DNA from: an uncultured Thermodesulfobacteriota bacterium
GTDB lineage: Bacteria; Desulfobacterota; GWC2-55-46; JADFVP01
Direction: 5' to 3'
Assembly: GCA_964472295.1 (NCBI GenBank)
Contig: CAYYJQ010000002.1
Location: 32,074-96,073 of the forward strand
Length of the DNA stretch: 64,000 bases
Position 1 is the stretch's first letter; every line of letters starts with the position of its first letter. The notes beneath the pieces were generated by a model. The model was not told the origin of the DNA. It ran no database searches and was given only the letters and a program-made list of their open reading frames with translations. Positions 5,704 to 49,597 of the stretch are shown here, in pieces. Both the position numbers and the translations under genes were made by a program.

Positions 5704-5726
5704 GATAATCCTTCTCTTACCAGGAC

Positions 5727-8062: not shown

Positions 8063-8109
8063 AACGGTGAAAATATGCGCCGCCATCTTCAAGGTTTGTC
8101 AGCCCTTGA

Positions 8110-9578: not shown

Positions 9579-9654
9579 ACCCGTCCTCTATTGATATATG
9601 CAGACATGCACGCGCCGCGCTAAAAACCCCACCAACGCCCCCTTGGGCGCCCCC

Positions 9655-10836: not shown

Positions 10837-10849
10837 CTACCGCTTCCTC

Positions 10850-12520: not shown

Positions 12521-12531
12521 TAATACCCCTT

Positions 12532-14058: not shown

Positions 14059-14065
14059 CTCCACC

Positions 14066-17072: not shown

Positions 17073-17110
17073 GGGACAGTCCTCTATCTTTCTCCCTCAC
17101 AGACCTTCCC

Positions 17111-19869: not shown

Positions 19870-19884
19870 CCTGACTCCAACCTC

Positions 19885-22211: not shown

Positions 22212-22243
22212 CTCAATGCCCTCTGAAGTTCCTTAACGTCTTT

Positions 22244-23284: not shown

Positions 23285-23313
23285 ACCTGAAAAGGGCGTA
23301 CATCTGTAAGAAG

Positions 23314-25350: not shown

Positions 25351-25409
25351 AATATATGCCTCATTTAACTACTCTCCTACAAGGTTTTGGATGTGCTATC
25401 TTGTAATGG

Positions 25410-25529
25410 TCAGAACTTTACGATCTTTAAGACCAGAAAAGAGAAGAAGGCCACCAGTCCTGTCCACGACGCAAAGAAAGCCGCTATTATAAAGAACCTC
25501 AGGTATCGCTGAAACTTGTTATCGTCCAT
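25410..25529 (-). CDS. candidate small single-TM protein (39 aa)
   Basis: Below the ORF-track length cutoff. Minus-strand ATG at 25529..25527 gives MDDNKFQRYLRFFIIAAFFASWTGLVAFFSFLVLKIVKF and ends at a stop at 25412..25410. AGGAAAAGG lies 5' of the start. It sits between the Wza-like and Wzc-like genes. Confidence 0.25.
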   Translation of the reverse strand: MDDNKFQRYLRFFIIAAFFASWTGLVAFFSFLVLKIVKF

Positions 25530-25589
25530 AGCCTTTTCCTATCACCCGCCCTGACGGGCGCCTTTATCTTATTTACAGCTCTACGTTAA

Positions 25590-26903: not shown

Positions 26904-27374
26904 TAAGCACCAGTTTTTTAGAGACCTCTCGGATGAAACTTAAAATATCCTTTATTCTTTATCCCAGCCCATTTATATTAATTTCTCACACACCTCACAT
27001 CGTTACACCCTGGCAACCCGGCCATGAAAGACTATCTCCCCACATACATACCAGCCCCACTTATGCCCTCTCGTTCCAGGCGCTCAGGCACCCAGCCACA
27101 AAAACCGTCCCTACCTCCCCCGCCCCCCTGCCCTCTTTAACCACAAAGGTGCAAAGCAGGGTCTTGCCGATATTACCAGCACCCCTCATGTACCAGGACC
27201 TCACCCCGTCCCGCCCAATCCCAAGCGGTACTGGGCCGACCAGGATCATATCACAGATGAAGACGTTGAATAAGCGCGTAAAGCGCTACGATAAGCCCAA
27301 ATCACCTGTCACCAGACTTCAGAGCCCCCGTGAGAAGGAAGCTCTTTAGAACACCATTTGCTGTACCCCTATTC

Positions 27375-30385: not shown

Positions 30386-31132
30386 ATGAGCCTATCGGAG
30401 ACCAACAAGAGGATCTGGGACGGATTTGTCCCTGATTACGTTGACAAGAGGGTGGAGAAGATCCTCGACCTCCTGCCCTCTTCCCTTAAGAACCCCCGCT
30501 ATCTTGACATAGGTTGCTCCAACGGGGCGGCGACAATGCTCGTGGCAGGACGCATAGGGGCGGACGTGGTAAAGGGCGTTGACCTTGTGCTCACTGACGA
30601 GGCAATAAAAAGGGGCGTTGACGCCTCAGCCAATGACCTTAACAGCGGCGAGCCGCTACCATTTGACGACAACTCCTTTCACGTCGTAACGTGCATGGAG
30701 ACCCTTGAGCACGTCCATGACACGGACTTCCTCCTCTCGGAACTACGCCGCGTCCTCCAAGACGACGGCACAGCCATAGTGGACATTCCGCGCCTTGACT
30801 CCATGATGAACGTCCTACTCCTCTTCTTCGGTTTTCAGCCCCCTGGAGTTGAGTGCTCGGCAAAAAAAAGATACGGCGCCATAAACGAGGGGAGCATCCT
30901 TACAGGCCATGTATCGTACTTTACAAAGCGGGCCTTCATGGAGATACTCGGGGCCAGCGGCTTCAATGTCCTTGAATTCGCCCAGAGCGGGCAGAAGAGC
31001 GACTGGGAGGCCGTGCAGGCAAAGCTTGGCCGAAGGCCCGGAACCATTCCAAGGCTCCTCTGGACGCTCTACGACCTTATCCCCTTCAAGAAAGACTACA
31101 TGATAGCGAAGATCGGGAAAAAGATTAGATGA
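30386..31132 (+). CDS. class I SAM-dependent methyltransferase
   Basis: Motif I YLDIGCSNGAATMLVAG and an acidic motif II. It overlaps the next gene by 4 nt (ATGA). Confidence 0.7.
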   Translation: MSLSETNKRIWDGFVPDYVDKRVEKILDLLPSSLKNPRYLDIGCSNGAATMLVAGRIGADVVKGVDLVLTDEAIKRGVDASANDLNSGEPLPFDDNSFHVVTCMETLEHVHDTDFLLSELRRVLQDDGTAIVDIPRLDSMMNVLLLFFGFQPPGVECSAKKRYGAINEGSILTGHVSYFTKRAFMEILGASGFNVLEFAQSGQKSDWEAVQAKLGRRPGTIPRLLWTLYDLIPFKKDYMIAKIGKKIR

Positions 31133-34100: not shown

Positions 34101-34158
34101 GAAGATGGCGAAAAAGGAAATATCCTCCATCTTGAGACAAAAGAAGGAACAGAGATAA
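31129..34158 (+). CDS. GT-C-fold membrane glycosyltransferase (ArnT/PMT-like, polyprenyl-P-sugar dependent) with periplasmic DUF and C-terminal TPR repeats
   Basis: Roughly 12 N-terminal TM helices. The central soluble domain FEVFLYDKSEGRLVRLFSRYLDPKNNLKERRWF...IYFVTSGGPRL is shared with the protein at 39648..43298. The C-terminal 250 aa are TPR repeats. Confidence 0.65.
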   Translation: MKSPERPTYPHATGLAVFILAIAAYLPISQVDLSMLDEGALLYVAERLTKGDVLYRDIVTGIMPGVYYLQALFFSVLGYSVMAGRVLACATLALNALLVYLLATRFLSKKTSIALGLFFISTALPSYWMAGYSQVSLTFVLTGLLFFLRYLGSRGLVDLLISGAAAGMALVFKQNYGVFITAGLGMTLMARLVLKREWRPVLVFSAAFLTPLIVMVLYFYSTGALPNMTEYTFFSLFKKAAGAYYKPYPLLSRTDPLFFNHELYNFIPFRNLAIWSLKEGYAREAWVRAAVVIIYALAPLIIASSLVYGAIALVRRRLKWEEGVLMLVSFLLFLGVFPRSDIHHLIFIAPPLMVTGAMLAGRLPVGGKALMISRTCALVIMGLFSALCLVSSYMPLLHPAPGREKVALDIPRAGGIRVEKREARVIRAVTNHIRKHTRPDEPILVVPTGAMYYFLAGRRSVVPYPLIMPGAMDEAVVIKAMEKASLRYIIYSDMSFDEETLSRHMPLIHDYIQKNYSIDPSYPLRETGGNVYVLKRGRPGEEITPLDSEAGEALVHTRGRHLPVLLDLAGGLEKARSGVILGSGRGVPLFRENQVTRNAWLLKDAILQEPGRGWSKVYTAFSLHVPRSSGLRFSIGQSPVVWSPWFGDGALFEVFLYDKSEGRLVRLFSRYLDPKNNLKERRWFTYLAGLKKYGGRDLIIYFVTSGGPRLNLTLGEMNRWRQIDMAGWGAPAIVGIGKVEGSNGAMVSGKAQKVLLPPMAAREMARFDDISFILEEKKKYPGDYDVLLTLGRIYERAGRKDKAIREYRAALKSYARGSEARNLLSRYYIRKGQHKKAEGLLIEGLGLDRTDAKLNMTMADLYRRRGKYEMAVMSYGQVLRARPGDEWALLGLARTYLAEKKPGKAMSEANKALDAHPGSTAALIMIGDAYRLKKEWKRAEKTYRKALRTNPDSPALKLKLALSLKAMGRTEEALKAYGEALTARGASDALKKMAKKEISSILRQKKEQR

Positions 34159-34961
34159 TGTCCATATCCATAACAAGGGGGCTCAAGCGGTCCCTTGAGT
34201 TCAGGAACCTTGTCACCGAGTTCGTAAAGAGCGACCTTCGGGCACGGTACGTGGGCTCAACGCTGGGCATCTACTGGTCCATAGTAAACCCCATTCTGCT
34301 CCTCATCATCTACACGCTCGTCTTCTCTGTCATACTCGGCGTAAGGTTCAAGGGCGGGCAGAGTTCTGACCACTACGCCCTCTATCTCTTCTGCGGCATG
34401 CTCCCCTGGCTCACCTTTCAGGAATCCATCACCACCAGCGTCGGAATACTGCCAAAGAACGCGAGCCTCATAAAAAATGTCGTATTCCCGCTAAAGACCC
34501 TGCACACCTCCATGGTCATATCAGGACTCATAAGCGAACTCATCGGCATAGCCATACTCCTTGTCTTCAGGCTTGTGCTCCTACACTCCATCGGAAACCT
34601 CTTCCCACTGCTCCTGGTAATCATATTCTTCCAGTTTTTCATGACCATGGGTTTTGCCCTCTTTCTCTCGGCCCTCAACGTCTTTTTCCGGGACGTGAAC
34701 CCCCTCATGAGGCCGCTTATCAGGATGTGGATGTACCTTACCCCGGTATTCTTCCCCCTCTCCATAGTACCCTCCACGGTAAGGTTCTTCATATACTTGA
34801 ACCCCATGACCCCCCTCATCATGGCGTACAGGGACGTGCTCCTGAATGACAAACTCCCTGGAGTAGGCTTTATTTACTTCATGATATTCTCGATAGTCAT
34901 CTTTATATACGGGTACAGGTTCTTCACAAAAAACCATATGAAACTCGTGGACCTCCTATAG
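34158..34961 (+). CDS. wzm: ABC-2 type polysaccharide exporter permease (Wzm/KpsM/TagG family)
   Basis: LRARYVGSTLGIYWSIVNPILLLIIYTLVF. Six TM helices. It is followed immediately by the ATPase gene. Confidence 0.8.
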   Translation: MSISITRGLKRSLEFRNLVTEFVKSDLRARYVGSTLGIYWSIVNPILLLIIYTLVFSVILGVRFKGGQSSDHYALYLFCGMLPWLTFQESITTSVGILPKNASLIKNVVFPLKTLHTSMVISGLISELIGIAILLVFRLVLLHSIGNLFPLLLVIIFFQFFMTMGFALFLSALNVFFRDVNPLMRPLIRMWMYLTPVFFPLSIVPSTVRFFIYLNPMTPLIMAYRDVLLNDKLPGVGFIYFMIFSIVIFIYGYRFFTKNHMKLVDLL

Positions 34962-34964
34962 ACA

Positions 34965-36218
34965 ATGATTGCCATCAAGGCCGAGAACCTCGGCAAAAAA
35001 TACGAGGTATACAAAAAACCCTCTCACCGGCTTGCGGAGATGCTCTTTCCAAAGGGCAAGAAGAGGCACAGGGACATGTGGGCCTTGAGAGAAGTCGACT
35101 TCGAGATAGAGAAGGGCTCTACCTGCGGGATTATCGGCCATAACGGGGCTGGAAAGAGCACGCTCTTAAGGCTCCTCTCGGGGCTCAGCCAGCCCAGTAC
35201 GGGCAGGATAACCACAAGGGGCAAGGTCACGAGCGTGCTTCAGCTTGGCGCTGGCTTCAGGGGAGACTTCACTGGAAGGGCGAACCTCTTCATGAACTGC
35301 TCCCTCATGGGTATCCCCAGAGAGGTAATCGAGACCAAGTTAGAGGAAATCCTGGACTTTTCCGAACTCGGGCACTTCATAGACATGCCCGTGAATACCT
35401 ATTCCTCTGGCATGAAGATGCGCCTTACCTTCTCCATCATGGTTGCCCTTGAACCGGAGATACTCCTCATAGACGAGGTCATTGCCGTTGGGGACGAGTA
35501 CTTCAGGGGGAAATGCTTCAACAAGATAAACGACCTCAAGCGCAGCGGCACGACCCTTGTAATAGTCACGCACAGCCTTTACAATCTAAGGAGCATCTGC
35601 GACCGCGTCATACTCCTTGAAAGAGGCCGCCTTGTTGCCAACGGCCAGCCCGACGAGGTGGTGGACAAATACCTCAACATGGTCCATGCCCAGAGAGAGG
35701 AACAGATACATAAGATAAATACTCGGGTAAAGGCAAAGGATTCGAGACCACGATGGGGCGAGGGCACCATAACCATAGACAAGGTGCGGCTCCTCGACAA
35801 TACCGGAACCGAACGCTACGTCTATCAGCCCGGTGACAGGGTAATAATCGAGGCCTCCTACAGTGTCAGAGAGACTACGAAAAAACCCGTCTTCGGCATA
35901 GGCATTTTCAGAAGCGACGGCACGTATATCTCGGGACTCAACCACCTCTGGCACAGAGACCCCCTTGAGATAGAAGAACTCAGGGAGGGAACACGGGGCA
36001 CCATAACCTGCCGAGTGAACGAACTCCCCCTTCTCAAGGGTTCTTATTATATATCCTATTACTGTTACGACCACAGCGAACTCGCCCCCACGCCCGTGGA
36101 CCACATGGAAAAGGCCCTCATCTTCGAGGTCATGGAGGGTAATGTCATAGAGCATGGCATGGTCTCCATTGCCACGTCGTGGGAATTAAGGCAGAACGAG
36201 GCCCATGAACCCGCTTAA
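34965..36218 (+). CDS. wzt: ABC polysaccharide exporter ATPase (Wzt/KpsT/TagH family) with C-terminal carbohydrate-binding extension
   Basis: Walker A GHNGAGKST, signature YSSGMKMRL, Walker B ILLIDEV. A roughly 170-aa C-terminal extra domain is typical of Wzt terminal-residue-binding modules. Confidence 0.85.
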   Translation: MIAIKAENLGKKYEVYKKPSHRLAEMLFPKGKKRHRDMWALREVDFEIEKGSTCGIIGHNGAGKSTLLRLLSGLSQPSTGRITTRGKVTSVLQLGAGFRGDFTGRANLFMNCSLMGIPREVIETKLEEILDFSELGHFIDMPVNTYSSGMKMRLTFSIMVALEPEILLIDEVIAVGDEYFRGKCFNKINDLKRSGTTLVIVTHSLYNLRSICDRVILLERGRLVANGQPDEVVDKYLNMVHAQREEQIHKINTRVKAKDSRPRWGEGTITIDKVRLLDNTGTERYVYQPGDRVIIEASYSVRETTKKPVFGIGIFRSDGTYISGLNHLWHRDPLEIEELREGTRGTITCRVNELPLLKGSYYISYYCYDHSELAPTPVDHMEKALIFEVMEGNVIEHGMVSIATSWELRQNEAHEPA

Positions 36219-37260
36219 ACTGCCCTTTGACCAGTACCAGAGATACCGCGTTGCTTGCGACGCCATAGAGGCGGTGCGCGAGGAGGGGGAAAAACTCACC
36301 GTCCTTGACGTTGGCGGCAGCCCGGGCCTTGCGCTGGATTTTCTCCCCAAGGACCGTGTCTTTGTCATCGACAGGACTGATGCCTCGAAGGGGCCTTTTA
36401 TCCGCGGTGACGGCACGGCCATGCCCTTCAGGGACAGGGCCTTTGACGTGGTAATGAGCGTGGACGTGCTCGAACACATCGCGCCCGAGAGAAGAGAGAC
36501 CTTCCTGAATGAACTCAAGCGTGTCTCGAAGAGATACGTCTTTATCGCCGCGCCCTTCCGCTCGGACGCCGTGGTAGAGGCCGAACGCGTCCTATATGAC
36601 GTAATAAAGGCCGCAAGCGGCGAGGAGCACGCCTTCTTGAAGGAGCACCTTGAGCACGGCCTGCCCGAAGAGTCAGGCGTGAGAGAGACCCTGGAGGGAG
36701 ACAGATGGGAGACCCTCTCCATACCCAACGGCGCCCTCAAGCGCTGGCTCCCCATGATGGCGCTCATGCTTTACATGATAGGGGACGAGAACCTCAGGGA
36801 CATTGCCGGACGGGTAAGCGCCTTTTATAACTCCAACTACTACGAGGACGACAACAGGGAACCCTCGTACCGCCGCCTTGTGGGCGCGGCAAGGGGCGGG
36901 TTCCCGCAAGGGGCCGCCGAAAAGATAGCGTTCCTTGCCTCAGGTGAAAAAGACGAAAAGGGACTGGACCTCTCGTGGCTCTCACTCTTTATCACCCTCT
37001 TCGGGTACAGAGACCTTAAGAAGGCACGCCATGACGAGAGAGAAGAATTCAAAAAAGTCATCGAGGCGAGGGATAACCATATAGAGAGCCTCAAGGAGAC
37101 GGTTACGGAGAAGGACAGGCGCATAAAAAGACAGAAAGATACGATAGAGGGTCAGAAAAAGACCATTGAAGCGCTCAGGAAGAGGCTTGAGACGCTGGAA
37201 AGATCCCCTGCCGTAAAGGCCCTCAAGGGGATTGGCGTCATAAAGAAGACCGGGAAATAA
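36205..37260 (+). CDS. SAM-dependent methyltransferase with C-terminal coiled coil (WbdD-like chain-terminating/capping enzyme candidate)
   Basis: LTVLDVGGSPGLALDFL...FDVVMSVDVLEHI methyltransferase fold. C-terminal heptad-like ESLKETVTEKDRRIKRQKDTIEGQKKTIEALRKRLETLE. It overlaps wzt by 14 nt. Confidence 0.6.
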   Translation: MNPLKLPFDQYQRYRVACDAIEAVREEGEKLTVLDVGGSPGLALDFLPKDRVFVIDRTDASKGPFIRGDGTAMPFRDRAFDVVMSVDVLEHIAPERRETFLNELKRVSKRYVFIAAPFRSDAVVEAERVLYDVIKAASGEEHAFLKEHLEHGLPEESGVRETLEGDRWETLSIPNGALKRWLPMMALMLYMIGDENLRDIAGRVSAFYNSNYYEDDNREPSYRRLVGAARGGFPQGAAEKIAFLASGEKDEKGLDLSWLSLFITLFGYRDLKKARHDEREEFKKVIEARDNHIESLKETVTEKDRRIKRQKDTIEGQKKTIEALRKRLETLERSPAVKALKGIGVIKKTGK

Positions 37261-37268
37261 GGGTTCTA

Positions 37269-38672
37269 ATGAAGGTACTTGAGGTCATTCACGATTTTCT
37301 GCCCCGCCATACGGCGGGTTCCGAGGTCTACACCTTCAAACTCTCGAAGGAACTTCAGAAGATGGGCCACGAGGTGAGCCTTTTTTTCACAGAGGCCGAC
37401 CGCTCCCAGAAGCAGTACACCCTGAGAGAGTACACCTACGAGGGGCTTCCCTGCTTCGAGGCCATTGTCAACCGCGCATACAGCGACTTTACCGAGACCT
37501 ACCTGAACCCGGCCATGGACGCTCTCTTCTCCGAGGTCCTCGACAGGACCAGGCCCGATGTCATACACCTTCAACACATCATCAACCACTCGCTTAACTA
37601 CACACGCATGGCAAGGGAGCGCGGCATCCCCGTTGTCTTCACCCTTCACGACTACTATCTCACCTGCCCGCTTGGCGGGCAGAGGATAAGGCCCGACCTC
37701 ACCATATGCCATGACGTTCTGTCGGCAAGATGCGCCAGGTGCATCTCAAGGTACTCAAAGGGCTCATTCAAACTCAAGAAACTCTTCAACCGCGTCTCTG
37801 GACGCATCACACCCCGGGGGGCCGGCAACTCATCTCCAGGCAGGGGCCTTGCGGCAAGGTCGCTCATGAGGTTCAACGGGATCTTTGATACCATGGCCGT
37901 TAAAAAACTCATCCCAGAGGTTGAAAAGAGGCTCCTTCGAGTACTGGAGGCATCGAAGGACGTTGACCTCTTTATCGCGCCCTCGCGCTTCCTGAGGGAC
38001 AGGTTCCTGGACTTCGGCATCCCTGAGGAAAAGATACTCTACTCTGATTACGGCTTTGACGTGGCGGCCTTCAGGAAGATAAAAAAGGAGAGGAAAAAGC
38101 ACAGAGGCCCCATGGTCTTCGGCTACACGGGAAGCCTCGTGCCCCACAAGGGCGTGCACGTCCTTGTCCATGCCTTCAGCGCCCTGGAGCCCGGAAGGGC
38201 GGAACTCAAGATATACGGCAACCTCACATGGTTTCCCGATTACGTCGCAAGGCTTCGCAAGATAGCGGGGGACGCGGACATAAAGTTCATGGGGGCCTTT
38301 GATAATAGCGATGTGCCCGGCGTGCTCGCGGACATGGACGTACTTGTCGTGCCCTCCATATGGTTCGAGAACTCGCCCCTGACCATACACGAGGCCTTTA
38401 TCTCCAGAACCCCTGTCATAACGAGCAACCTCGGCGGCATGGCCGAACTCATAGATAACAACGTCTCGGGCCTTGTCTTTGAGACAGGCGACTCAGATGA
38501 CCTTCGCGCCAAGATGGAGGCTCTCATAAACGAACCTGGCCTTTTGGAAAGGCTCCGAAAGGGCCTGCCCCCTGTAAAGACCATAAGCGACGACGCCCGT
38601 CATATGGAGGAGATTTTCAGGGGGCTTATCGCCGGCAAGCCGTCCGTGCTTAGAGCCAGGGGGCAGGGCTGA
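37269..38672 (+). CDS. GT4-family glycosyltransferase with N-domain Cys4 insertion
   Basis: EAFISRTPVITSNLGGMAELIDNNVSGLVFETGD GT4 motif. Insert TCPLGGQRIRPDLTICHDVLSARCARC. It is a paralog of the N-domain of the protein at 39648..43298. Confidence 0.75.
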   Translation: MKVLEVIHDFLPRHTAGSEVYTFKLSKELQKMGHEVSLFFTEADRSQKQYTLREYTYEGLPCFEAIVNRAYSDFTETYLNPAMDALFSEVLDRTRPDVIHLQHIINHSLNYTRMARERGIPVVFTLHDYYLTCPLGGQRIRPDLTICHDVLSARCARCISRYSKGSFKLKKLFNRVSGRITPRGAGNSSPGRGLAARSLMRFNGIFDTMAVKKLIPEVEKRLLRVLEASKDVDLFIAPSRFLRDRFLDFGIPEEKILYSDYGFDVAAFRKIKKERKKHRGPMVFGYTGSLVPHKGVHVLVHAFSALEPGRAELKIYGNLTWFPDYVARLRKIAGDADIKFMGAFDNSDVPGVLADMDVLVVPSIWFENSPLTIHEAFISRTPVITSNLGGMAELIDNNVSGLVFETGDSDDLRAKMEALINEPGLLERLRKGLPPVKTISDDARHMEEIFRGLIAGKPSVLRARGQG

Positions 38673-39647: not shown

Positions 39648-42600
39648 ATGCGCATCGCCCTTGTTATACATGGTTTTCCGCCGGAGAACATGGCAGGCTC
39701 CGAGGTATATACCTGTAACCTTGCCGTGGAACTCGCAAAAAAACACGAGGTCTTTGTCTTTCAGAGGACCGCCGACCCGGACCGGCCAGAGTACGACGTT
39801 CAGAAACGCGGGTACCGGGGCCTCAACATAACCGCCATAAACAACAACTTCCGAAAGTGCCCGGATTTTTCCTGGACCTATCGTAACGACGAGATAGCGA
39901 AAAAATTCGGCGAGTTCCTTGACGAGACCAGGCCGGATGTAGTGCATTTTCACCACCTTACGTGCCTCTCCACCACCTGCGTGGAAGAGGCAAAAAAAAG
40001 AGGTCTTCCCGTTGTATACACGCTTCACGACTTCTGGCTCATCTGCCAGAGGGGCCAACTCCTCACAAGGGACCTCCATATATGCCCCGGCCCCTCGGTA
40101 GAGGCCTGCGCCGAATGTCTCGCAGGGCAGCTCGCCATGGGCGAGAGGACGAAAAAGGCCGCCGAGGCCCTCAAGAAGGGCCTTCCCGTGCTCGGGGGCA
40201 AGGGCAGGGCAAAGGAACTCCTCAGAAAGGTCTTTCTCTTCTCATCAAAGACCCTGCAGAGGGATGGGACCAAGGCCGCGGGGAAGATAAGACAACGGGA
40301 AGGGCATATAAGAGAGACCTTGTCTCTTATTGACAGGTTCATCTCTCCATCAGAGTTTGTAAGGGAAAAATTCATAGAGGCCGGAGTACCTGAAGACAGG
40401 ATAACCTTTCTTGACAATGGCTTTGATACCGCCATCTTCAAGGGGCTGAAGAGAAAGCCCTCCAAGAAGATACGCTTCGGATACATAGGCACATGGATAC
40501 CATCAAAGGGTGTGCATGTGCTCCTGAAGGCCTTCAGCCGCGTAAAAGAGAGCAAGGCCACGCTCACCGTGTACGGACGCCACGCCGCATATGATGGTTA
40601 CAGGGATTATGGAAAAGACCTTGAGGCCCTTGCGGACAACAAGGCCATACGCCTTGCCGGTCCCTATGACAATTCTGACGTTGGGAAGATACTCTCCGGG
40701 ATAGACGTCCTTATCGTGCCCTCCATCTGGTACGAGAACTCCCCCCTTACTGTGCACGAGGCCTACCTTGCCGGGGTGCCCGTCCTCGCTTCAGACATCG
40801 GCGGCCTTGCCGAGTACGTGGGCGAGGGCCGGGGCGGCATGAACTTTCGCGCGGGAGACGACAAGGACCTTTACGAAAAGATAAAGGAGATTATGGATAA
40901 CCCCTCCCTTATCGAGAAGATGAGAAGCACAATCCCACCCGTAAAGTCCATAGAGGAAAACGCAGGAGAGTTGGAGGGGATATACAGGGACCTTGCCAGC
41001 CCGGCCATGACCAGTGGTTATGACTTCATAAGCAATATCTTCACGGCAGAGGTCAAAAAAGACGGCAAGGGCTTCACCGAGTGCGCCTACCCCAAGTACA
41101 GGCACAAGGAGATGGTGAACGAGGGCGCCTTCAAGGTTGGAGGCGAGGAACGCCGCGTACTCTTCGAGCACCCCGCCATACGCGTTGGCGATACGTCCAT
41201 GACAGTGGCCTTCAGGAAAGTCAATGTAAAGGAAGGCGACGCACTCGAATTCGGCATTGGCGTAAACGAAGAGGCATGGACTAAGCCCGGCGACGGCGTG
41301 GACTTCGAGGTCCTTATAAAGGACGGCGAGACGCTGAAGCCTGTCTTCAAAAAATACATTGACCCCAAGCGAAATGAGGCGGATAGAAAGTGGTTTGATG
41401 AAAGAGTAGACCTTGGCGCATTTGAGGGCCGGACCATTGAAATACTCTTTCGCACCTCTGCCGGGCCGCGCGGCGATACGGAGTATGACTGGGCAGGCTG
41501 GAGCGAGCCCGCGGTGGTAAGCGGGGACGGCGCGTGTCGTTGCCTCCTTGACGAGTTGGACCGCGCCTTTATTGTGCGTTATGAAAAAAAGGAAGAGCAG
41601 GTCCTCGAAGACGTCCTGTATCTTGGCGACGACGCCCGGCAGGTGGTCTCTCTTGAGAACGGCGTGGAACTCGTCTACAGGGGCGTTACAGTTCCAGAGG
41701 GGGCGAGACTGAGGCTCGGCATAGGCGGAAGGAGCGGCCCCTCTGGCATGAGCCTCAAGGGGGGGCTTGAGATAGACGTAACAAGAGACGGGTCGAGGGA
41801 GACCATCTTCTCAAAAAACGCCCTTAGCGTGCTCTCAAAGCGCCTTACGAGCAAGGCCTGGCACGACGTGGAACTGGACCTTGAGAGATACTCGGGCCAG
41901 ACCCTTGACTTTCACTTTCGTAACAGGAGCAGTCAGATAATGGGCCTTGGCCCCCTTGAGATAATTTCAAAGGAAAAGAAAGAGATACGCCCACGGAAGT
42001 CAGAGCATACAAACGTCCTCATCATCACCCTTGACGCCGTGCGGGCCGACCGCATGGGTTTCATGGGCAACAAGGCCATGAAGACACCCTGCATGGACCG
42101 CTTAGCCCGCGAGGGCGTAGTATTTACCAACCACTTCGCCCAGTCGCACATTACAATACCATCGCACATGTCTCTTCTCTCATCAAAATTTCCGCGTACC
42201 ATAAAGACCCTCGATAACTACCAGTACAACCTCCCGTCCCTCCAGACCATAGCCGAGAGGCTCGGAGACAAGGGCTACAGGAGCTCGGCGGTGGTAAGCG
42301 TATCTCTACTCAACCCCTCGTGGTGCCGGGGAATAGAGCGGGGGTTTGACGACTACTTCCCAGTGCTTGGAAGGGAGCGCACCGCCTCACAGGGCATGAA
42401 CATCCTTGGCAACTGGATAGAAAAAAACAGCGAGAACCCCTTTTTCTCGTGGATACACCTCTATGACGCCCACTTCCCATACCAGGCCCCAAAACCCTTT
42501 CACACCATGTTCAAGGGGGGCGCGTCCCGTAGCGGCGCGCCCGCCATTGACGAGATAAAACTACACCCCCAGACAAGAAAATGGCTTGCTGACAGGGGCA

Positions 42601-43298
42601 TCACGGCCATGGACGCCCCAGTGGCCGAGTACAACGCCGAGGTGACATACCTTGACCATGAACTAAACCGCCTCTTCACCCGCATGGAGGCCCTCGGGGT
42701 CCTCGATAATACCCTTGTCATGATAACGGCTGACCACGGCGAGTGCCTCGGCGAGAGGGGGAGTTTCTTCTCCCACGTCGGGGTCTTTGACGAGACCATG
42801 CGAATACCCCTTGTCATGCGCCTTCCCGGGAGGCTTCCCGCCGGAAAGAGGATAGACGCCATGACCATGAACGTAGACCTCGTGCCAACGGCCATGGACA
42901 TACTCGGCCTCGCAGAAGAAAAAAAGGGCATGGAGGGTAAAAGCCTCCTGCCCCTCGTGGAAGGGAGCGCCAAGGGGATCCATGAGTATGTCATCGACGA
43001 GGGCGGCCACGGTGCCCAGGTGGCCCTGAGGACAGAAAAATGGAAGTTCATAAAGACCTTTGACGACATCTCCTATCTTGCCAACTTCCAGCGAAACAAG
43101 GGCGATGTGGAACTCTTTGACCTTGAGTCTGACCCGGGGGAGAAAAAGAACATTGCCAAGGAAAACCCGGAGACCTGCAGGCGTCTTTCCGGCCTCCTCG
43201 ACAAGTGGCTCGCCTCGCGAGCGGGAGCGGAGCAGGCCGAGATGATAGAGGCCGACGAAGAGACAAAGAAGAAACTCGAGGCCCTGGGGTATCTATAG
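39648..43298 (+). CDS. multidomain 1216-aa protein: GT4 glycosyltransferase + two copies of an uncharacterised domain + C-terminal sulfatase-family (alkaline-phosphatase superfamily) domain with Thr/His in place of the Cys/Arg sulfatase motif
   Basis: N-terminus MRIALVIHGFPPENMAGSEVYT...EAYLAGVPVLASDIGGLAEYV (GT4), with Cys4 insert ICQRGQLLTRDLHICPGPSVEACAEC. DUF copy 1 FEVLIKDGETLKPVFKKYIDPKRNEADRKWF...EILFRTSAGPRGDTEYDWAGWSEP, then a second degenerate copy. C-domain NVLIITLDAVRADRMGFMG...HITIPSHMSLLSSKFP...TADHGECLGERG...DLESDPGEKKNIAKE. It ends with the tail KKLEALGYL. Confidence 0.75.
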   Translation: MRIALVIHGFPPENMAGSEVYTCNLAVELAKKHEVFVFQRTADPDRPEYDVQKRGYRGLNITAINNNFRKCPDFSWTYRNDEIAKKFGEFLDETRPDVVHFHHLTCLSTTCVEEAKKRGLPVVYTLHDFWLICQRGQLLTRDLHICPGPSVEACAECLAGQLAMGERTKKAAEALKKGLPVLGGKGRAKELLRKVFLFSSKTLQRDGTKAAGKIRQREGHIRETLSLIDRFISPSEFVREKFIEAGVPEDRITFLDNGFDTAIFKGLKRKPSKKIRFGYIGTWIPSKGVHVLLKAFSRVKESKATLTVYGRHAAYDGYRDYGKDLEALADNKAIRLAGPYDNSDVGKILSGIDVLIVPSIWYENSPLTVHEAYLAGVPVLASDIGGLAEYVGEGRGGMNFRAGDDKDLYEKIKEIMDNPSLIEKMRSTIPPVKSIEENAGELEGIYRDLASPAMTSGYDFISNIFTAEVKKDGKGFTECAYPKYRHKEMVNEGAFKVGGEERRVLFEHPAIRVGDTSMTVAFRKVNVKEGDALEFGIGVNEEAWTKPGDGVDFEVLIKDGETLKPVFKKYIDPKRNEADRKWFDERVDLGAFEGRTIEILFRTSAGPRGDTEYDWAGWSEPAVVSGDGACRCLLDELDRAFIVRYEKKEEQVLEDVLYLGDDARQVVSLENGVELVYRGVTVPEGARLRLGIGGRSGPSGMSLKGGLEIDVTRDGSRETIFSKNALSVLSKRLTSKAWHDVELDLERYSGQTLDFHFRNRSSQIMGLGPLEIISKEKKEIRPRKSEHTNVLIITLDAVRADRMGFMGNKAMKTPCMDRLAREGVVFTNHFAQSHITIPSHMSLLSSKFPRTIKTLDNYQYNLPSLQTIAERLGDKGYRSSAVVSVSLLNPSWCRGIERGFDDYFPVLGRERTASQGMNILGNWIEKNSENPFFSWIHLYDAHFPYQAPKPFHTMFKGGASRSGAPAIDEIKLHPQTRKWLADRGITAMDAPVAEYNAEVTYLDHELNRLFTRMEALGVLDNTLVMITADHGECLGERGSFFSHVGVFDETMRIPLVMRLPGRLPAGKRIDAMTMNVDLVPTAMDILGLAEEKKGMEGKSLLPLVEGSAKGIHEYVIDEGGHGAQVALRTEKWKFIKTFDDISYLANFQRNKGDVELFDLESDPGEKKNIAKENPETCRRLSGLLDKWLASRAGAEQAEMIEADEETKKKLEALGYL

Positions 43299-43300
43299 AT

Positions 43301-44002
43301 ATGAAAACACTCGTAATCCTTCCCACATATAACGAAGCCGGAAACATCGAGAAGATGGTGCGCGCTGTCCTCAAGATGCGATGCGCCCACGTGCTTGTCG
43401 TGGACGACAACTCCACCGACGGCACAGGGGAAATCGCCGACCATCTCGCCAAGAAGGACAAAAGGGTGCGCGTACTTCACAGGAGCGGAAAACTGGGCCT
43501 TGCCTCGGCCTATATAGAGGGCTTTCACCTTGGGTTCGAGAATGGATATGAGTTCATACAGCAGATGGACTGCGACTTTTCCCACGACCCCGCGGACCTG
43601 CCAAGATTTCTTGAGGAGATGAAGACCAGCGGCGCGGACGTGGTCATCGGGTCGCGCTATGTGCCGGGCGGGGCCATTATTGGTTGGCCCCTTGCGAGAC
43701 ACATACTCAGCAAGGGCGGCAACCTCTACGCGCGCTTTATCCTCCGATGCAACCTCAGGGACTGGACAGGAGGGTTCAACCTCTTCAGGGCCGCGGCGCT
43801 AAGAGAGATTATAGATGAGAAGAACTTTGCCGAGGGATACGCCTTTCTCGTGGAGATGAAGTACCACGCCGTAAAGAGGGGATTCAAGGTAAGAGAGATT
43901 CCCATTGTCTTCAGGGAAAGGACCATAGGCGAGTCCAAGATGGGAAGGAATATCGTCACCGAGGCGGCAAAGAGGGTCTGGAAACTGAGAAGAGAGGGCT
44001 GA
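43301..44002 (+). CDS. polyprenyl-phosphate sugar synthase, GT2 (DPM1/GtrB/CsbB-like)
   Basis: The ORF-track frame starts at 43205 inside the previous gene. The likely start is the ATG at 43301, 2 nt after the upstream stop. MKTLVILPTYNEAGNIE...VLVVDDNSTDGT...GSRY... gives a dolichol-phosphate-mannose-synthase-like pattern. Confidence 0.8.
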   Translation: MKTLVILPTYNEAGNIEKMVRAVLKMRCAHVLVVDDNSTDGTGEIADHLAKKDKRVRVLHRSGKLGLASAYIEGFHLGFENGYEFIQQMDCDFSHDPADLPRFLEEMKTSGADVVIGSRYVPGGAIIGWPLARHILSKGGNLYARFILRCNLRDWTGGFNLFRAAALREIIDEKNFAEGYAFLVEMKYHAVKRGFKVREIPIVFRERTIGESKMGRNIVTEAAKRVWKLRREG

Positions 44003-44005
44003 GGG

Positions 44006-46117
44006 GTGAGAAGGCCTGCAACCCTCTTGGCGGCGCTCCTCCTCATTGGACTGGCCGCCCTCTACTGGAAGATATGCGTCCTCATGGCCGCCACGGGCAG
44101 GGTCTCGCCTTTTGGCTCCGAGAACCTCTACGTACTCTACTACCCCCTCATACGCTACGGCGTAGAGTCCATGAAGGCCCTGCATATCCCCCTCTGGAAC
44201 CCCTACCAGTCCCTTGGAGCGCCCTTTCTGGGCTCAGCGCTCTTCGGTCTCTTCTCGCCCTTCAGTTTTCTCTACTACATACTGCCGACGCACATTGCCA
44301 TGGGCTGGTCCACCGTTCTGAACATAGCCCTTGCAGGGTTCTTCACCTTTTTATTCCTCAATAAGAGCCTTAAGATAGCACCTGCCGGCGCCCTCGCCGG
44401 GGCCATTGTCTTCATGTTCTCAGGGCCACTGCTTCTTGAGATAATACACCCATCGCTCGTAGGGGCCATGAGTTTTCTACCCCTTCTGCTCTATCTCACG
44501 CAAAAGATATTCGAGAGAGAGAGCACCCGGTGGGCGGCACTCTTTGCCGTCATACTTGCCTGCCAGATGCTTACAGGCGCCGTGCAGGTAATCGTCCATA
44601 GCATCTTCCTGACAGGGGCCTACGCCATGGCGCTCTTCTACCATGCCTGGCGTGACAAAAGGGCAGGCATGAGGCCCCTTGTCCTCATCGTCATCGGCGG
44701 CCTTGTGGCCATTGCCCTCTCTTTAATACAGTGGCTTCCGCTCCTTGAACTCTCGGGCCATACTGGAAGAGACGCGAGCGGGCTCTCCCTCAAAGACGCC
44801 GAGCCATTCATATCCGTCTTCACCCCCGCCTTTGTCATAAAGAGTCTCCTCTTCGGCGGACGCGGCATGACTATTGGTCTTATTCCTGTATTACTGGGCC
44901 TCTTTGCCGTCTTTAACCGCAGGTCTCGTGGCCGCACGCTTTTTTTCGCCTTCATGGCCCTTCTCACGCTCCTCATGGCCTTTGGCACTCATACGCCCCT
45001 TTACGGCATTTACTACCACTATATACCCACAGGCAAGATGTTCCGCGTGCCCGTGCGCTGGCTCTGGCTAACGGCATTTTCCGTGGCCGTACTCGCGGCC
45101 TACGGCGCGGGGGCCATCTTCAGGGAGTTGGAGGCCCGAAGGGGCCTTCGCGCCGCGGCCCTCATCATCATCCCCTTCCTCATTACGGTCTTTCTCTTTC
45201 AGAAGAACGTGATGAGACTCTATAACCACCCCCAGCAGACGCCAGCCCTCTTCACGCGCCACGCGGAAGAAGGCGCATTCCTCAGAAAGGTTCAGGGCAC
45301 GTACCGCACATACATATCAAGCGACTTTGGAAGAGATTTTTCGCTCCTTCAGAAGTTCGGCACCATAGAGAAGGTCTATGTCCTCAATGACTACGAATCC
45401 CTGAGCCTCGGCTCCTACCAGAGGTTCGCGGCCGCGGTCCTCGGTAGAGACGATATGCTCTCAAAAAAAATCTTCTACGGCGCCTTCATGCTCAAGAACG
45501 GCCAGAAGAGCCTCCGCCTCATGAGCCTCTTAAGCACAGGCTTTGTAATGGAAAAAGGCCATGGCCCCTTCGGCAAAAAAACGCCACCCGGCATGGACGA
45601 GATATACAACAAGAAGGGCGTTAAGATATACCGCTATAAAGGCGCCCTCCCGAGGGCCTATGTGGTCTACAGGAGCGAGACCATAAAGGACGAGACCACG
45701 GCCCTTAAGAGGCTCGCATCTCCTGCCTTCAACCCCAGGGCCGCCGCAATTCTTGAGCATGACGCGGGCCTTGCCAAGGCCCCCCCGCAAGGCCCTGCCC
45801 TTACAAGGGCGCGCATAACGCGCCTTCTCCCCGAAAAAGTGGAGATAAGGGCAGACCTCCGGGAAAGGGGCGTCCTCGTCATGACGGACTTTTTCTATCC
45901 CGGATGGCGCGCCTACGTGGACGGAGCGGAGGCCCCCATTCTCAGGGCAAACACCATCATGAGGGGCCTTGTCCTTGATAAAGGCCCTCACAAGGTGGTA
46001 TTTGTCTACAGGCCCCTGCCCTTCAGGATAGGGCTCTGGGTATCTATCCTTACCCTTGCGGGACTTCTCATATACCTCGGCCTTGACATCAAGAAAGGTG
46101 CGCGGAAAAGACCATGA
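44006..46117 (+). CDS. YfhO-family GT-C membrane glycosyltransferase
   Basis: At least 12 TM helices. The periplasmic C-terminal domain ends ...MTDFFYPGWRAYVDGAEAPILRANTIMRGLVLDKGPHKVVFVYRPLPF plus a final TM helix, the YfhO hallmark. Confidence 0.65.
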   Translation: MRRPATLLAALLLIGLAALYWKICVLMAATGRVSPFGSENLYVLYYPLIRYGVESMKALHIPLWNPYQSLGAPFLGSALFGLFSPFSFLYYILPTHIAMGWSTVLNIALAGFFTFLFLNKSLKIAPAGALAGAIVFMFSGPLLLEIIHPSLVGAMSFLPLLLYLTQKIFERESTRWAALFAVILACQMLTGAVQVIVHSIFLTGAYAMALFYHAWRDKRAGMRPLVLIVIGGLVAIALSLIQWLPLLELSGHTGRDASGLSLKDAEPFISVFTPAFVIKSLLFGGRGMTIGLIPVLLGLFAVFNRRSRGRTLFFAFMALLTLLMAFGTHTPLYGIYYHYIPTGKMFRVPVRWLWLTAFSVAVLAAYGAGAIFRELEARRGLRAAALIIIPFLITVFLFQKNVMRLYNHPQQTPALFTRHAEEGAFLRKVQGTYRTYISSDFGRDFSLLQKFGTIEKVYVLNDYESLSLGSYQRFAAAVLGRDDMLSKKIFYGAFMLKNGQKSLRLMSLLSTGFVMEKGHGPFGKKTPPGMDEIYNKKGVKIYRYKGALPRAYVVYRSETIKDETTALKRLASPAFNPRAAAILEHDAGLAKAPPQGPALTRARITRLLPEKVEIRADLRERGVLVMTDFFYPGWRAYVDGAEAPILRANTIMRGLVLDKGPHKVVFVYRPLPFRIGLWVSILTLAGLLIYLGLDIKKGARKRP

Positions 46118-47446: not shown

Positions 47447-48124
47447 CTAAAGGGTCTGGGCCTTCCTGATAAAGTCCTTGCGCTCGCCGGGAGAGAGAAA
47501 CGAGTCAGACTCGGGGTAGAGTATCTGCTCTTCCTTCATGTTGTGGTCCGCAAGGGTATTGACCAGCATGTCCGTGCCCCTTGCCGTCTCCTCGCGGTCC
47601 CTGGCCTCTGTGGCGTTCATAATCTTCTCAAGAAAATCCCTTATATCCGTGTGCTCCATGCGCATCACAAATGTGGGACCTGCGTCATGCATGCCTGTCT
47701 TTTCCTCGAAGAGGGGAAATAGCACATCTTCCTCGCCCTGTATGTGCCTCCTGAGGCCAAGGTCAAACTCCCTGAAATAGGCTTTGGCCTCGTCCCATCT
47801 CTCTTCCTTGAAGGCCTCCTGAAAACTGTTGAATATGTGATCAAGCCTCCTGTGGTCCTCCTGAAGATAATCCGTCACATCCCGCTCCACGGCCTTTGTG
47901 CGCCTCTTCACAATGCGGACACGCCAGGCCTCGGGACCGCGCTCAAGGGGCCACCACTCGAACTCGCCGTCATGCTCGTTCTGAAACTGATAAAGGAGCG
48001 GCTTTGGGTCGTGGTCATTAACGAGAACAAAACTATCCCCTGGCTCAAGAGATTTAAAGGTGTTGAATATGCCGGGGTGCCTCTCCGGCGGGCTGAGCGG
48101 CCTTACGTCAAGTACGGTCTCCAT
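47447..48124 (-). CDS. DUF2249 + hemerythrin-like (HHE cation-binding) two-domain protein
   Basis: The likely start is the ATG at 48124 (METVLDVRPL...), preceded by CAGGAGG. DUF2249-like VLDVRPLSPPERHPGIFNTFKSLEPGDSFVLVNDHDPKPLLYQFQ. A hemerythrin-like helical domain carries H/E/D ligands (HIFNSF, EEDVLFPLFE, MRMEHTDI). The ORF track extends it to 48196. Confidence 0.6.
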   Translation of the reverse strand: METVLDVRPLSPPERHPGIFNTFKSLEPGDSFVLVNDHDPKPLLYQFQNEHDGEFEWWPLERGPEAWRVRIVKRRTKAVERDVTDYLQEDHRRLDHIFNSFQEAFKEERWDEAKAYFREFDLGLRRHIQGEEDVLFPLFEEKTGMHDAGPTFVMRMEHTDIRDFLEKIMNATEARDREETARGTDMLVNTLADHNMKEEQILYPESDSFLSPGERKDFIRKAQTL

Positions 48125-48526
48125 ATGTATATCTGCCTCCTGTTTATAATTATTATAGACGCATTTTAACAAGAAGGGAAAGATTGTAAATGACAAAAGT
48201 CAGTTATGCGGGGAAGGCTACACGTAAAAAAAATATCATAATCACCCCCATGTCAAAAAAATGAATATCCCCCTTCCGTGGGGTTGTTTTTCTGACATGC
48301 CTGTGCTATTATTACACAAACTTCAGTCCTGACGACGGGGCGGATGATGGCAGAGTGGCCACTGGGCAGGGATGGGGCTTAGTTAAAGTCCCCACCTGCG
48401 AGCACATGGCCTTACTCAAGGCCTGGCCCCTGGTTTGTACGTCCATAAAAGAGGAAGGTCTCTATTCTCCTCCTTATTGCGTAATCTTTTACCGCCCCGA
48501 GTATATTCTCATCCCGGAGACTCAGC

Positions 48527-49597
48527 ATGGCGCGCGTAAGCGTTCTTATCGTTACATACAATTCCAAAGATACCATAGGCACTGTTCTTGAATCACTCAA
48601 CAGGCAGACCCACAAAGACTTCGAGGTAATACTTGTTGATAACGCCTCAACGGACTCTACCCGCGCCGTTGTGCGGGGGTTTGCCCCACGGGCCTCCTAT
48701 ACGCTCAAGACCCTTTTCCTTGACAAAAACAGGGGCTTTGCAGGGGGTAACAATGAGGCCTACTCCCTTGCAACAGGCGAGTTCATAGCCCTTCTTAACC
48801 CCGATGCCAGGGCCTCCGAGACCTGGCTCGATGAACTCCTCTCAGGCCTCGAAAGAGACCGTTCCGCCGGCATCTGCACTTCCCGCGTCCTTACCTGGGA
48901 CGGCTCTGCCGTTGATAGCGCGGGCGACGTCCTTCTATCCACCCTCAGGTGCTTCAAACGCGAGGCTACGGAGAACGAGAGATACAAAAAACGCGAGTAC
49001 GTCTTCAGCGCCTGCGCCGCGGCGGCCATGTACAGAAGAGAGATGCTCGACAAAATAGGTTTTTTTGACGAAGACTTCTTCATACAGTGTGAGGACACTG
49101 ACCTCAGCATGAGGGCACAGGTCGCGGGGTGGAAGGTCCTCTACCTCCCTCGGGCCGTGGTATACCACAAGGTGGGCCACTCCATTGGAAAGGCCAGCGC
49201 CACAGGCGTGTACTACAGCCAGCGCAACATGGAGTTCCTGCGAATAAAATACCTGCCTCTCTCGCTACTCGTAAAGAGCCTGCCGCAGATGCTCTTTGGT
49301 TTCACGGCAGACATGCTCTACTTCGCCATACGCCAGAGAAAGGCAGGCCCCTTCTTCCGGGCAAAGCTCGACGCCTTGAAGATGACAGGGGGTATGCTGA
49401 AAAAGAGAAAATACATCAGAAAAGAACTTAAAAAGGTGGATAACGCCTACCTTGCCTCTCTTGTCACACCAGTATTCCTGAATAAAGAACTCATAAAAAT
49501 GAAACTCGCCAAACTCATGCCAGCGCCTGCCGCGAAAGACACTACCCCAGCAACAAACCCCGGCTTTCTGAGACGACTCCTCTCCATCTACAGATAA
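48527..49597 (+). CDS. GT2-family glycosyltransferase (paralog of 46114..47214)
   Basis: VSVLIVTYNSKDTIGTVLESL...NRGFAGGNNEA...LLNPDARAS. Confidence 0.75.
   Translation: MARVSVLIVTYNSKDTIGTVLESLNRQTHKDFEVILVDNASTDSTRAVVRGFAPRASYTLKTLFLDKNRGFAGGNNEAYSLATGEFIALLNPDARASETWLDELLSGLERDRSAGICTSRVLTWDGSAVDSAGDVLLSTLRCFKREATENERYKKREYVFSACAAAAMYRREMLDKIGFFDEDFFIQCEDTDLSMRAQVAGWKVLYLPRAVVYHKVGHSIGKASATGVYYSQRNMEFLRIKYLPLSLLVKSLPQMLFGFTADMLYFAIRQRKAGPFFRAKLDALKMTGGMLKKRKYIRKELKKVDNAYLASLVTPVFLNKELIKMKLAKLMPAPAAKDTTPATNPGFLRRLLSIYR

Follow-up and report, generated by a model that had tools for sequence, protein, structure and literature searches.

The stretch of DNA analysed here (the window) comprises 64,000 nucleotides of contig CAYYJQ010000002.1 (assembly GCA_964472295.1) from an uncultured Thermodesulfobacteriota bacterium, and contains on its forward strand a glycan locus in which one open reading frame (ORF) encodes a fusion protein of 1216 amino acids (aa), referred to below as the target. 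The target carries a glycosyltransferase (GT) of family GT4 at its N-terminus, two copies of a domain of unknown function (DUF) with a predicted carbohydrate-binding-module (CBM)-like fold in its middle, and at its C-terminus a sulfatase-like domain of the alkaline phosphatase (AP) superfamily, in which a threonine occupies the position of the formylglycine (FGly)-yielding residue of sulfatases. The fusion is rare, and its two unusual parts come from large, widespread and unstudied families. Its features are as follows.

39648..43298, plus strand: target ORF, 1216 aa, ATG start, with GT4, two CBM-like domains, Thr-type S1-fold sulfatase-like domain and LxxLGY tail
39648..40997, plus strand: GT4 (GT-B) domain, aa 1-450, from Pfam and invariant columns
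41001..41522, plus strand: CBM51/MAM-like beta-jelly-roll copy 1, aa 452-625, folded core at about aa 491-625 (41118..41522)
41565..41972, plus strand: divergent CBM-like copy 2, about aa 640-775, from BLASTP and hidden Markov model (HMM) matches to copy 1
42006..43217, plus strand: S1-sulfatase-fold AP-superfamily domain of the Thr clade, aa 787-1190, from Pfam, PDB profile, AlphaFold (AF2) and Foldseek
42033..42035, plus strand: D796, first metal ligand, invariant in the family and Asp in 114/120 relatives
42153..42167, plus strand: T836-I-P-S-H840, at the position of the FGly signature C/S-x-P-x-R, from the translation and HMMER alignments
42471..42473, plus strand: H942, equivalent of EfAS His220, His in 120/120 relatives and 106/106 ORFs
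42732..42737, plus strand: D1029-H1030 metal ligands in a TADHGE motif, 120/120 relatives and 106/106 ORFs
42774..42776, plus strand: H1043, a His at the position of the sulfatase active-site Lys (EfAS K324), invariant in the family
43218..43295, plus strand: C-terminal tail ending KKLEALGYL (LxxLGY motif), with L1210, L1213, G1214 and Y1215 invariant in 12 homologues
32971..33333, plus strand: the same CBM-like domain in the GT-C (PMT_2)/TPR membrane protein, aa 615-735, from BLASTP and HMM

The four-part fusion described in the first-pass annotation of this sequence is confirmed by the ORF itself, by a Pfam scan that places GT4 at the N-terminus and Sulfatase followed by SGSH_C at the C-terminus (with no significant Pfam match between about aa 450 and 785), and by homologue alignments. 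The target family contains 14 proteins of the same architecture, taken from a collection of 5.8 billion sequences; 11 span 100% of the query, two (P0012 and P0013) are partial fragments, and all of the named members are from Thermodesulfobacteriota (metagenome-assembled genomes). Invariance in the family refers below to 12 full-length homologues with 53-79% identity to the target. These homologues come from a word-index search, and its counts are lower bounds: the isolated sulfatase-like domain as a query missed its own family (P0001-P0014).

The N-terminal part has the two-domain GT-B signature of the GT4 glycosyltransferases, with Glyco_transf_4 (PF13439) at aa 17-131 (77 bits) and Glycos_transf_1 (PF00534) at aa 269-426 (83 bits), both above the gathering threshold. 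The E363-x7-E371 motif is invariant across the 12 homologues, and the GT4 is apparently intact; it shares 38% identity with the adjoining stand-alone GT4 at 37269..38672. Its N-terminal half contains a Cys-rich insert (40044..40118, aa 133-157) in which C133, C146, C154 and C157 are invariant in the 12 homologues and which could be a zinc-ribbon-like element. The neighbouring paralogous GT4 also has a Cys-rich insert, and one related GT4 carries a 'Zn-ribbon' label in its JGI annotation.

No transmembrane segment or signal peptide is present in the target, and the maximum hydropathy (KD19) is 1.14. Because it lacks a hydrophobic segment and its N-terminus is a GT-B domain that depends on nucleotide-sugars, the entire protein, including its CBM-like and sulfatase-like domains, should be cytoplasmic; the C-terminal domain, whose side of the membrane had been left to topology prediction, is thus predicted to lie on the cytoplasmic face.

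Fold and active site of the sulfatase-like domain

By sequence and predicted fold the C-terminal domain is of the S1-sulfatase/phosphonate monoester hydrolase (PMH) type. Pfam Sulfatase (PF00884) matches at aa 789-1087 (E=7.6e-37) and SGSH_C at aa 1040-1173 (E=2.2e-16), and the NCBIfam scores are 149 bits for choline-sulfatase, 140 for arylsulfatase and 122 for PehA, against 43 for YejM, the highest-scoring Thr-type model. Used as a profile, the domain matches S1 sulfatases and PMHs of solved structure along its whole length (best E=5e-73), and all of the best 60 PDB profile matches belong to these two groups. The AF2 model has a pLDDT of 89.8, and its best 50 Foldseek matches are likewise all S1 sulfatases or PMHs (TM 0.68-0.78). 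The AP-superfamily alpha/beta core, the S1 C-terminal subdomain and the sequence homology are all present, and the homology to choline sulfatase (6g5z/6fny), BT4656 (5g2v) and SpAS1/PMHs (4upi, 4uph, 2vqr) extends over both subdomains.

The motif that had been singled out in this domain, with Thr and His in place of Cys and Arg, is real. TIPSH aligns in register with (C/S)-x-P-S-R of solved sulfatases (for example 'hitipshms' with 'LSGPSRAC' of 5g2v in HMMER alignments), and T836, P838, S839 and H840 are invariant in the 12 full-length homologues, so that an artefact of alignment and a sequencing error can both be dismissed. A canonical sulfatase with a misaligned motif can be ruled out, as single-sequence and profile alignments agree and the motif is invariant.

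Experimentally defined residues of EfAS, a member of the AS/PMH group, provide a reference set: D20, Q21, C61, R65, K110, H112, H220, D311, H312 and K324 (PMC12421950). The target keeps the metal ligands and the conserved active-site His expected of an S1 enzyme (D796, D1029, H1030 and H942), and so shares with PMHs and EfAS the D...DH metal site and the His220 equivalent. We take the H942 position to be His229 in human ARSA numbering. Unlike S1 sulfatases and PMHs, however, the target has T836 in place of the nucleophilic Cys, H840 in place of the signature Arg, and S1042/H1043 at the last active-site Lys; S884 and S886 align to the Lys and His of the 5g2v 'GKWHL' sequence, and this Lys/His pair is absent. 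The target alignment thus contains neither the FGly signature C/S-x-P/A-x-R nor residues of the K110/H112/K324 type. The domain also differs from these enzymes in its predicted cytoplasmic location and in its fusion to GT and CBM-like domains. The Mn-dependent arylsulfatase EfAS, whose NCBIfam model (NF052527) matches the domain, was considered as a precedent for a Thr-type enzyme and rejected, as it uses Cys61/FGly.

It is extremely improbable that the domain is a true sulfatase that removes sulfate from a sulfated glycan, whether Thr836 acts directly or is first oxidised to a keto form analogous to FGly. The S1 fold and overall homology would suit it, the organism is probably related to sulfate reducers, and the window includes a radical-SAM/SPASM gene (22244..23284). 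FGly cannot be formed from Thr, whose oxidation would give a ketone and has never been observed (PMC5066984); the domain cannot therefore be a formylglycine sulfatase, as had been proposed from the motif. The residues that bind sulfate (Arg, Lys and His) are replaced, and no sulfotransferase or PAPS genes are present in the locus. The radical-SAM protein is not anSME-like: as a candidate for modification of T836 it was set aside because its best matches are W-cofactor or metalloenzyme maturases, with no anSME among the 25 best NCBIfam families, and no anSME-type maturase is encoded within the window.

A closer parallel for the active site is found in MCR-1, in which E246, T285, D465 and H466 hold Zn1, and H395 and H478 hold Zn2 (PMC5175174). 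In the target, the corresponding one-acid, Thr, Asp, His metal site consists of D796, T836, D1029 and H1030, with T836 as the predicted nucleophile, and H942 and H1043, candidates for a Zn2 or phosphate site, follow the order of MCR-1 H395 and H478 with similar spacing, a correspondence drawn from residue order and the S1 alignments. The order of all six residues is the same, and the spacings are 40/106/87/13 in the target and 39/110/70/12 in MCR-1. A Thr nucleophile, a one-acid/Thr/Asp/His site and two further His are features of MCR-1/EptA/EptC, LtaS, OpgB/MdoB and GacH, which decorate glycans or lipids with phospho-substituents, as we propose for the target.

The first-pass annotation had likened the domain to the LtaS/EptA/MdoB branch of Thr-nucleophile phosphotransferases. 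This is correct for the set of ligands and incorrect for the family, and membership in the LtaS/EptA branch is ruled out by sequence, fold and topology: the S1 C-terminal subdomain is kept, and the target has no membrane anchor. No MCR-1/EptA, LtaS or OpgB structure is among the best 60 PDB or best 50 Foldseek matches, and in place of the N-terminal polytopic membrane domain of those proteins the target has GT4. Its T-x-P-S-H motif also differs from the T-x-N-x-E that SulfAtlas records for a Streptococcus mutans PF00884 group (PMC5066984), which we read as LtaS-like.

In our reading, this clade kept the S1 scaffold, adopted Thr as its nucleophile and gave up the cationic residues that hold the charge of sulfate or monoester substrates. 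Together with established AP-superfamily enzymology, the loss of these residues and the Thr nucleophile fit phosphodiester or phospho-transfer chemistry through a phospho-Thr, and the active site would be built for phosphate instead of sulfate. The domain is quite probably a competent Thr- and metal-dependent phosphoesterase or phosphotransferase, and not a sulfatase.

The Thr clade and the jelly-roll family

The Thr/His substitution is not special to the target, and its distribution suggests that it is a property of a large uncharacterised clade. The nucleophile position is Thr in 117 and Cys in three of the domain's 120 nearest relatives (26-34% identity); His stands at the Arg position in 65 of them and at the Lys position in 103. 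A set of 106 ORFs drawn from species-representative genomes shows conservation of the six active-site positions too, with Thr in 98 of the 101 that could be aligned and a His at positions 1041-1043 in 105 of the 106. A scan of 185,579 species genomes gave at least 568 confirmed clade loci in many bacterial phyla (including Acidobacteriota, Planctomycetota, Myxococcota, Armatimonadota and Chloroflexota) and some archaea. Replacement of Cys by Thr within PF00884 is already known in general (SulfAtlas, PMC5066984). That remark was the sole relevant text in our literature searches, which found no described Thr-type S1-like clade or GT4-sulfatase fusion.

This conservation bears on whether the domain is catalytically dead, serving as a binding or scaffold module that recruits partners or lipid, as proposed for YejM/PbgA. 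The canonical sulfatase signature and several active-site residues are missing, and the YejM model matches weakly (43 bits). However, the four metal ligands, nucleophile included, and the two His are invariant in the family, and the same residues are near-universal in relatives of about 30% identity from many phyla, which is the signature of a working site and not of decay. We consider a dead scaffold very unlikely.

The LxxLGY motif is found just after the catalytic domain in 83 of the 120 relatives, compared with 2 of 120 shuffled sequences. The relatives P0121-P0240 carry a (D/E)...LxxLGY[VLI] element at the C-terminus or at the junction to TPRs.

Two copies of the DUF had been recognised between the enzyme domains of the target, and both are recovered here. 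Copy 1 (about aa 452-625) and copy 2 (about aa 647-761) are 25% identical by BLASTP (E=3e-5), and an HMM built from copy 1 matches aa 672-759 (independent E=1.3e-5), so that copy 2 is genuine though divergent. The domain is also shared, as had been claimed, with the GT-C/TPR protein (ORF 31129..34158), in which about aa 615-735 are 35% identical to copy 1 (E=2e-18; HMM E=5e-40). The proposal that it is locus-specific does not hold. When cluster representatives at 50% identity were searched exhaustively with HMMER, a profile made from copy 1 and the GT-C copy matched 2,597 of them at E<=1e-3 (1,235 at E<=1e-10), and most family members have two tandem copies. The motif and the domain that were presented as unique to this locus are thus both real features, the first clade-wide and the second widespread.

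Although the DUF is common, it falls outside the named CBM and Pfam families. In the target and the other members sampled it is matched by no Pfam or NCBIfam model, and the sole match over it in the Pfam scan of the target is InhA-like_MAM (E=0.01, below threshold). The predicted fold is similar to CBM51 (2vmi, 2vng, 7jrm) and MAM (PTPmu, 2c9a) at 7-14% identity. The domain differs from both in having its own signature, W..PGDG..FEV ... Y.DPK.N...R.WF ... TS.GPR ... D.AGW..P. Binding of a polymer is a reasonable suggestion, as the predicted fold is that of a carbohydrate-binding module.

The company kept by the DUF was examined in its 149 best matches, scored with local HMMs (that for the sulfatase being derived from the catalytic domain only). 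Polytopic membrane proteins with the domain or domains near the C-terminus account for 66; three of these were given a Pfam scan, and two are PMT_2 with TPR and one is DUF2079. A further 17 have one or two copies immediately upstream of a Thr-type sulfatase-like domain without GT4, most of them with lipoprotein or Tat-like signals. The sulfatase-like domains associated with the DUF all have the Thr and His set. Among the 149, the order GT4-DUF-DUF-sulfatase-like is seen only in the target family, and one further match, P0388 (2174 aa), also hits the GT4 model. Three stand-alone modules (P0242, P0297 and P0262) have no obvious signals; the first is 44% identical to the target across the whole C-terminal 767 residues, and the others are 36% and 32% identical, respectively. 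These relationships point to DUF-DUF-sulfatase-like as a pre-existing evolutionary module onto which GT4 was fused in the lineage of the target.

The genomic contexts of Thr-clade relatives lacking the DUF give no uniform functional clue. Tandem arrays of three to five Thr-type paralogues are present at L029, L034, L049, L063 and L065 (Acidobacteriota, Gemmatimonadota and others), many of the arrayed proteins being 650-950 aa long with extra domains (TPR and others); the arrays suggest a large, diversified family. At another locus (L006), the gene for a Thr-type sulfatase-like protein with TPRs (P0122) is flanked by a TonB-dependent-like CarboxypepD_reg/outer membrane protein (OMP) beta-barrel gene, a pair of Phosphodiest genes and an OpuAC-type ABC transporter. 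The setting resembles one of nutrient scavenging, so that part of the clade is probably hydrolytic.

Hydrolysis has also to be considered for the target, with the C-terminal domain acting as a phosphatase, phosphodiesterase or pyrophosphatase that trims a phosphorylated intermediate made or used by GT4, or takes off a phospho-substituent in editing or maturation. Most AP-superfamily members of this fold, S1 sulfatases and PMHs among them, are hydrolases, relatives in the clade form tandem arrays or lie beside TonB-type OMPs, Phosphodiest genes and OpuAC transporters, as would suit nutrient scavenging, and the target locus has no gene for donor synthesis. The cytoplasmic AP-superfamily enzymes known to us are mutases or hydrolases, and other sugar-phosphate synthases are paired with phosphatases. 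However, the Arg and Lys that would accommodate the extra charge of a monoester are lost, a change that, to judge from NPP, LtaS and EptA, suits transfer or diester substrates better than monoester hydrolysis, and the tandem CBM-like domains and the GT fusion suggest a polymer substrate and not a small metabolite. We hold a hydrolase of this kind to be a tentative alternative, unlikely though of some weight.

The glycan locus and its split-gene counterpart

The locus begins with a LuxR gene on the minus strand, followed by genes for a methyltransferase, the GT-C(PMT_2)-DUF-TPR protein, Wzm, Wzt with a Wzt_C domain, a methyltransferase with a coiled-coil-like tail, GT4, GT2, the target, a GT2 resembling polyprenyl-phosphate GTs, YfhO and a further GT2. 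The following features lie beside the target.

34158..36218, plus strand: Wzm (ABC-2 permease) and Wzt (ABC ATPase with C-terminal Wzt_C), from Pfam ABC2_membrane, ABC_tran and Wzt_C
36205..37260, plus strand: SAM-methyltransferase, 351 aa, with a coiled-coil-like C-terminus (about aa 268-332), from Pfam; overlaps the end of wzt
43301..46117, plus strand: 233-aa GT2 (AglJ, PpgS and PgfS models), then YfhO-family membrane protein (weak PgfM1 match)

Judged by their domains, Wzm and Wzt form the export system of the locus, and their synteny is kept in loci L001-L005. Each of the four homologue loci examined keeps the gene order of the target locus, apart from L004, which lacks YfhO. The 233-aa GT2 and YfhO together resemble a two-component system that would glycosylate either the exported polymer or a protein outside the cytoplasm. 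The start listed for the 233-aa GT2 ORF (GTG at 43205) overlaps the target, and the gene calls of homologous contigs use ATG 43301. A hemerythrin/DUF2249 gene (47447..48196, minus strand) lies between the glycan locus and a GT2 at 48527..49597, and is syntenic in all homologous contigs.

A more distant arrangement is seen in a metagenomic locus (L011), in which the gene order is lipoprotein Thr-type sulfatase-like, DUF-inserted GT4, GT2, DUF-DUF-sulfatase-like, GT4, PMT_2-TPR and methyltransferase. The GT4 downstream of the DUF-DUF-sulfatase-like gene is 45% identical to the GT4 domain of the target over its full length (E=1.5e-145), the GT2 is 52% identical to the GT2 upstream of the target, and the other GT4 matches the neighbouring GT4 of the target. 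In this last protein, the orthologue of the neighbouring GT4, a jelly-roll DUF copy (aa 161-286) is inserted near the position of the Cys-rich insert. Another stand-alone module, at L010, follows a PMT_2 gene and a methyltransferase. The target fusion thus joins genes that are adjacent elsewhere, which is classic evidence of one shared pathway.

Multi-module cytoplasmic enzymes are the rule in ABC-transporter-dependent glycan assembly, and a CBM on Wzt implies a terminal cap (PMC11231755). WbbB (K. pneumoniae O12), WbdA/WbdD (O9a/O3/O5), O7 ORF6 and the H. influenzae b capsule polymerase all combine GT with non-GT modifying modules, and the target resembles them in being a predicted cytoplasmic enzyme with a GT module, encoded beside Wzm and a Wzt with a C-terminal CBM as in the WbbB/WbdD loci. 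It differs in that no known member of this group has an AP-superfamily/sulfatase-fold module, or tandem jelly-rolls in place of the coiled-coil spacer, and a terminator role in the target locus is a candidate only. No coiled-coil family match is present in the target; the coiled-coil-like region of the locus is instead in the methyltransferase at 36205..37260, the C-terminal 65 or so residues of which weakly match DUF16, TACC_C and SKA1. By its domain content this 351-aa protein is a plausible WbdD-like candidate for a methyl terminator with a short ruler.

Installation of a cap would be a special case of transfer and only one possibility for the sulfatase-like domain. The domain would supply a phospho cap at the non-reducing end, perhaps then methylated by one of the two methyltransferases, that stops growth and is read by the Wzt CBM, with the jelly-rolls as spacer or ruler separating the polymerase module from the terminator. 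Known caps include methyl-phosphate from kinase and methyltransferase pairs, and the locus has two methyltransferases and no recognisable kinase. The Wzt of the locus has Wzt_C, characterised transporters of this type export capped chains only, and WbbB is a precedent for polymerase and terminator modules in one polypeptide (PMC11231755). Set against this, the 351-aa methyltransferase has a tail resembling that of the methyl-only WbdD (O8/O5) and could suffice, the target is without a coiled-coil, and nothing indicates phosphate on the glycan. A phospho cap is in our view distinctly unlikely.

The window contains a second glycan locus, an exopolysaccharide (EPS) locus of the Wzx/Wzy type, on the minus strand (1109..29129), which also has GNAT, GT2 and GT4 genes. 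Its other features are as follows.

27375..29129, minus strand: NTP_transferase-hexapeptide-Bac_transf fusion
25590..26903, minus strand: Wza-like Poly_export
23314..25350, minus strand: Wzz/GNVR/P-loop tyrosine-kinase-like gene
22244..23284, minus strand: radical SAM/SPASM gene
20655..22211, minus strand: MurJ/MATE flippase
15579..17072, minus strand: Wzy_C ligase-like gene
1109..3115 (exported), 10850..12520, 12532..14301, 14066..15595 and 18196..19869, minus strand: five AP-superfamily proteins

The last four of these AP-superfamily proteins are PF01663 paralogues in which the nucleophile position is Thr or Ser and neither a signal peptide nor a transmembrane segment is present. Cytoplasmic enzymes of the AP superfamily thus appear to be a recurring theme of the glycan loci of this genome.

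Proposed role in glycan assembly

A plausible scenario is that the target is a soluble cytoplasmic multi-module enzyme of Wzm/Wzt-CBM (ABC-transporter)-dependent glycan assembly in this uncultured Thermodesulfobacteriota bacterium. The N-terminal GT4 would transfer a sugar from a nucleotide-sugar to a lipid-linked glycan at the inner membrane face, and the two CBM51/MAM-like jelly-roll domains would hold or position that glycan. The Thr-type domain would carry out metal-dependent phosphoester processing through a covalent phospho-Thr836, as in MCR-1/EptA, LtaS and NPP, so that, ahead of export through Wzm/Wzt, a phospho-linked substituent is added to this glycan or taken off it. We give this scheme as a whole, in which GT4 extends the glycan, the CBM-like domains hold it, and the Thr836 domain makes or breaks a phosphoester before export, an even chance of being right. 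That the glycan of the locus is the substrate of the C-terminal domain is, taken separately, rather more probable than that, and transfer and hydrolysis appear roughly equally likely. The addition of a sugar and a phosphodiester-linked substituent in one step, as first suggested for this polypeptide, is a hypothesis.

Several observations weigh against the proposed scheme. LtaS, EptA, OpgB and GacH are extracytoplasmic and use lipid donors, whereas the target domain is predicted to be cytoplasmic, and the window has no genes for supplying a phospho-donor, such as those for CDP-alcohol synthesis or a kinase. The equivalence with the two-zinc site of MCR-1 derives from order, spacing and S1 alignments, and not from structural superposition. 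The strict synteny comes from one narrow lineage and provides little independent co-occurrence signal, only L011 and L010 being independent. The scavenging-like contexts of other clade members favour hydrolase activity for at least part of the clade, and we know of no biochemically characterised member of the Thr clade or of the DUF family.

A more far-reaching form of the proposal is that the target is the first cytoplasmic AP-superfamily glycan phospho-transferase, adding a phosphodiester group or the phosphate of a methyl-phosphate cap to the GT4-extended glycan while the CBM-like domains feed the chain, and that the clade is a widespread and unrecognised surface-glycan phospho-decoration system. 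This is speculative, and we think it unlikely as it stands. If true, thousands of Thr/His-clade 'sulfatases', together with the jelly-roll domain found beside them and with the GT-C/TPR enzymes, would define such a system.

Multi-module glycan-assembly enzymes as such are already known. We have not found described a Thr/His clade built on the S1 scaffold with MCR-like ligands, the jelly-roll family that accompanies it and the GT-C/TPR enzymes, or a sulfatase-fold module within a cytoplasmic GT polypeptide. The DUF marks GT-C/TPR glycosyltransferases and Thr-type enzymes alike, and merits definition as a family. If the reading of the active site is correct, the annotations 'sulfatase', 'arylsulfatase A-like' and 'choline-sulfatase' across at least 568 loci are almost certainly wrong, and the clade would be an FGly-independent, Thr-nucleophile class whose active site converges on that of MCR/EptA/LtaS while the S1 scaffold is kept, and thus a natural experiment in nucleophile and substrate switching inside the alkaline phosphatase superfamily. 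The GT4 fusion and its split counterpart in L011 provide a concrete and testable tie between this enzyme class and glycan assembly, in a small, cloneable, ABC-transporter-dependent locus that would add a new type of module to the multi-module enzymes of glycan assembly.

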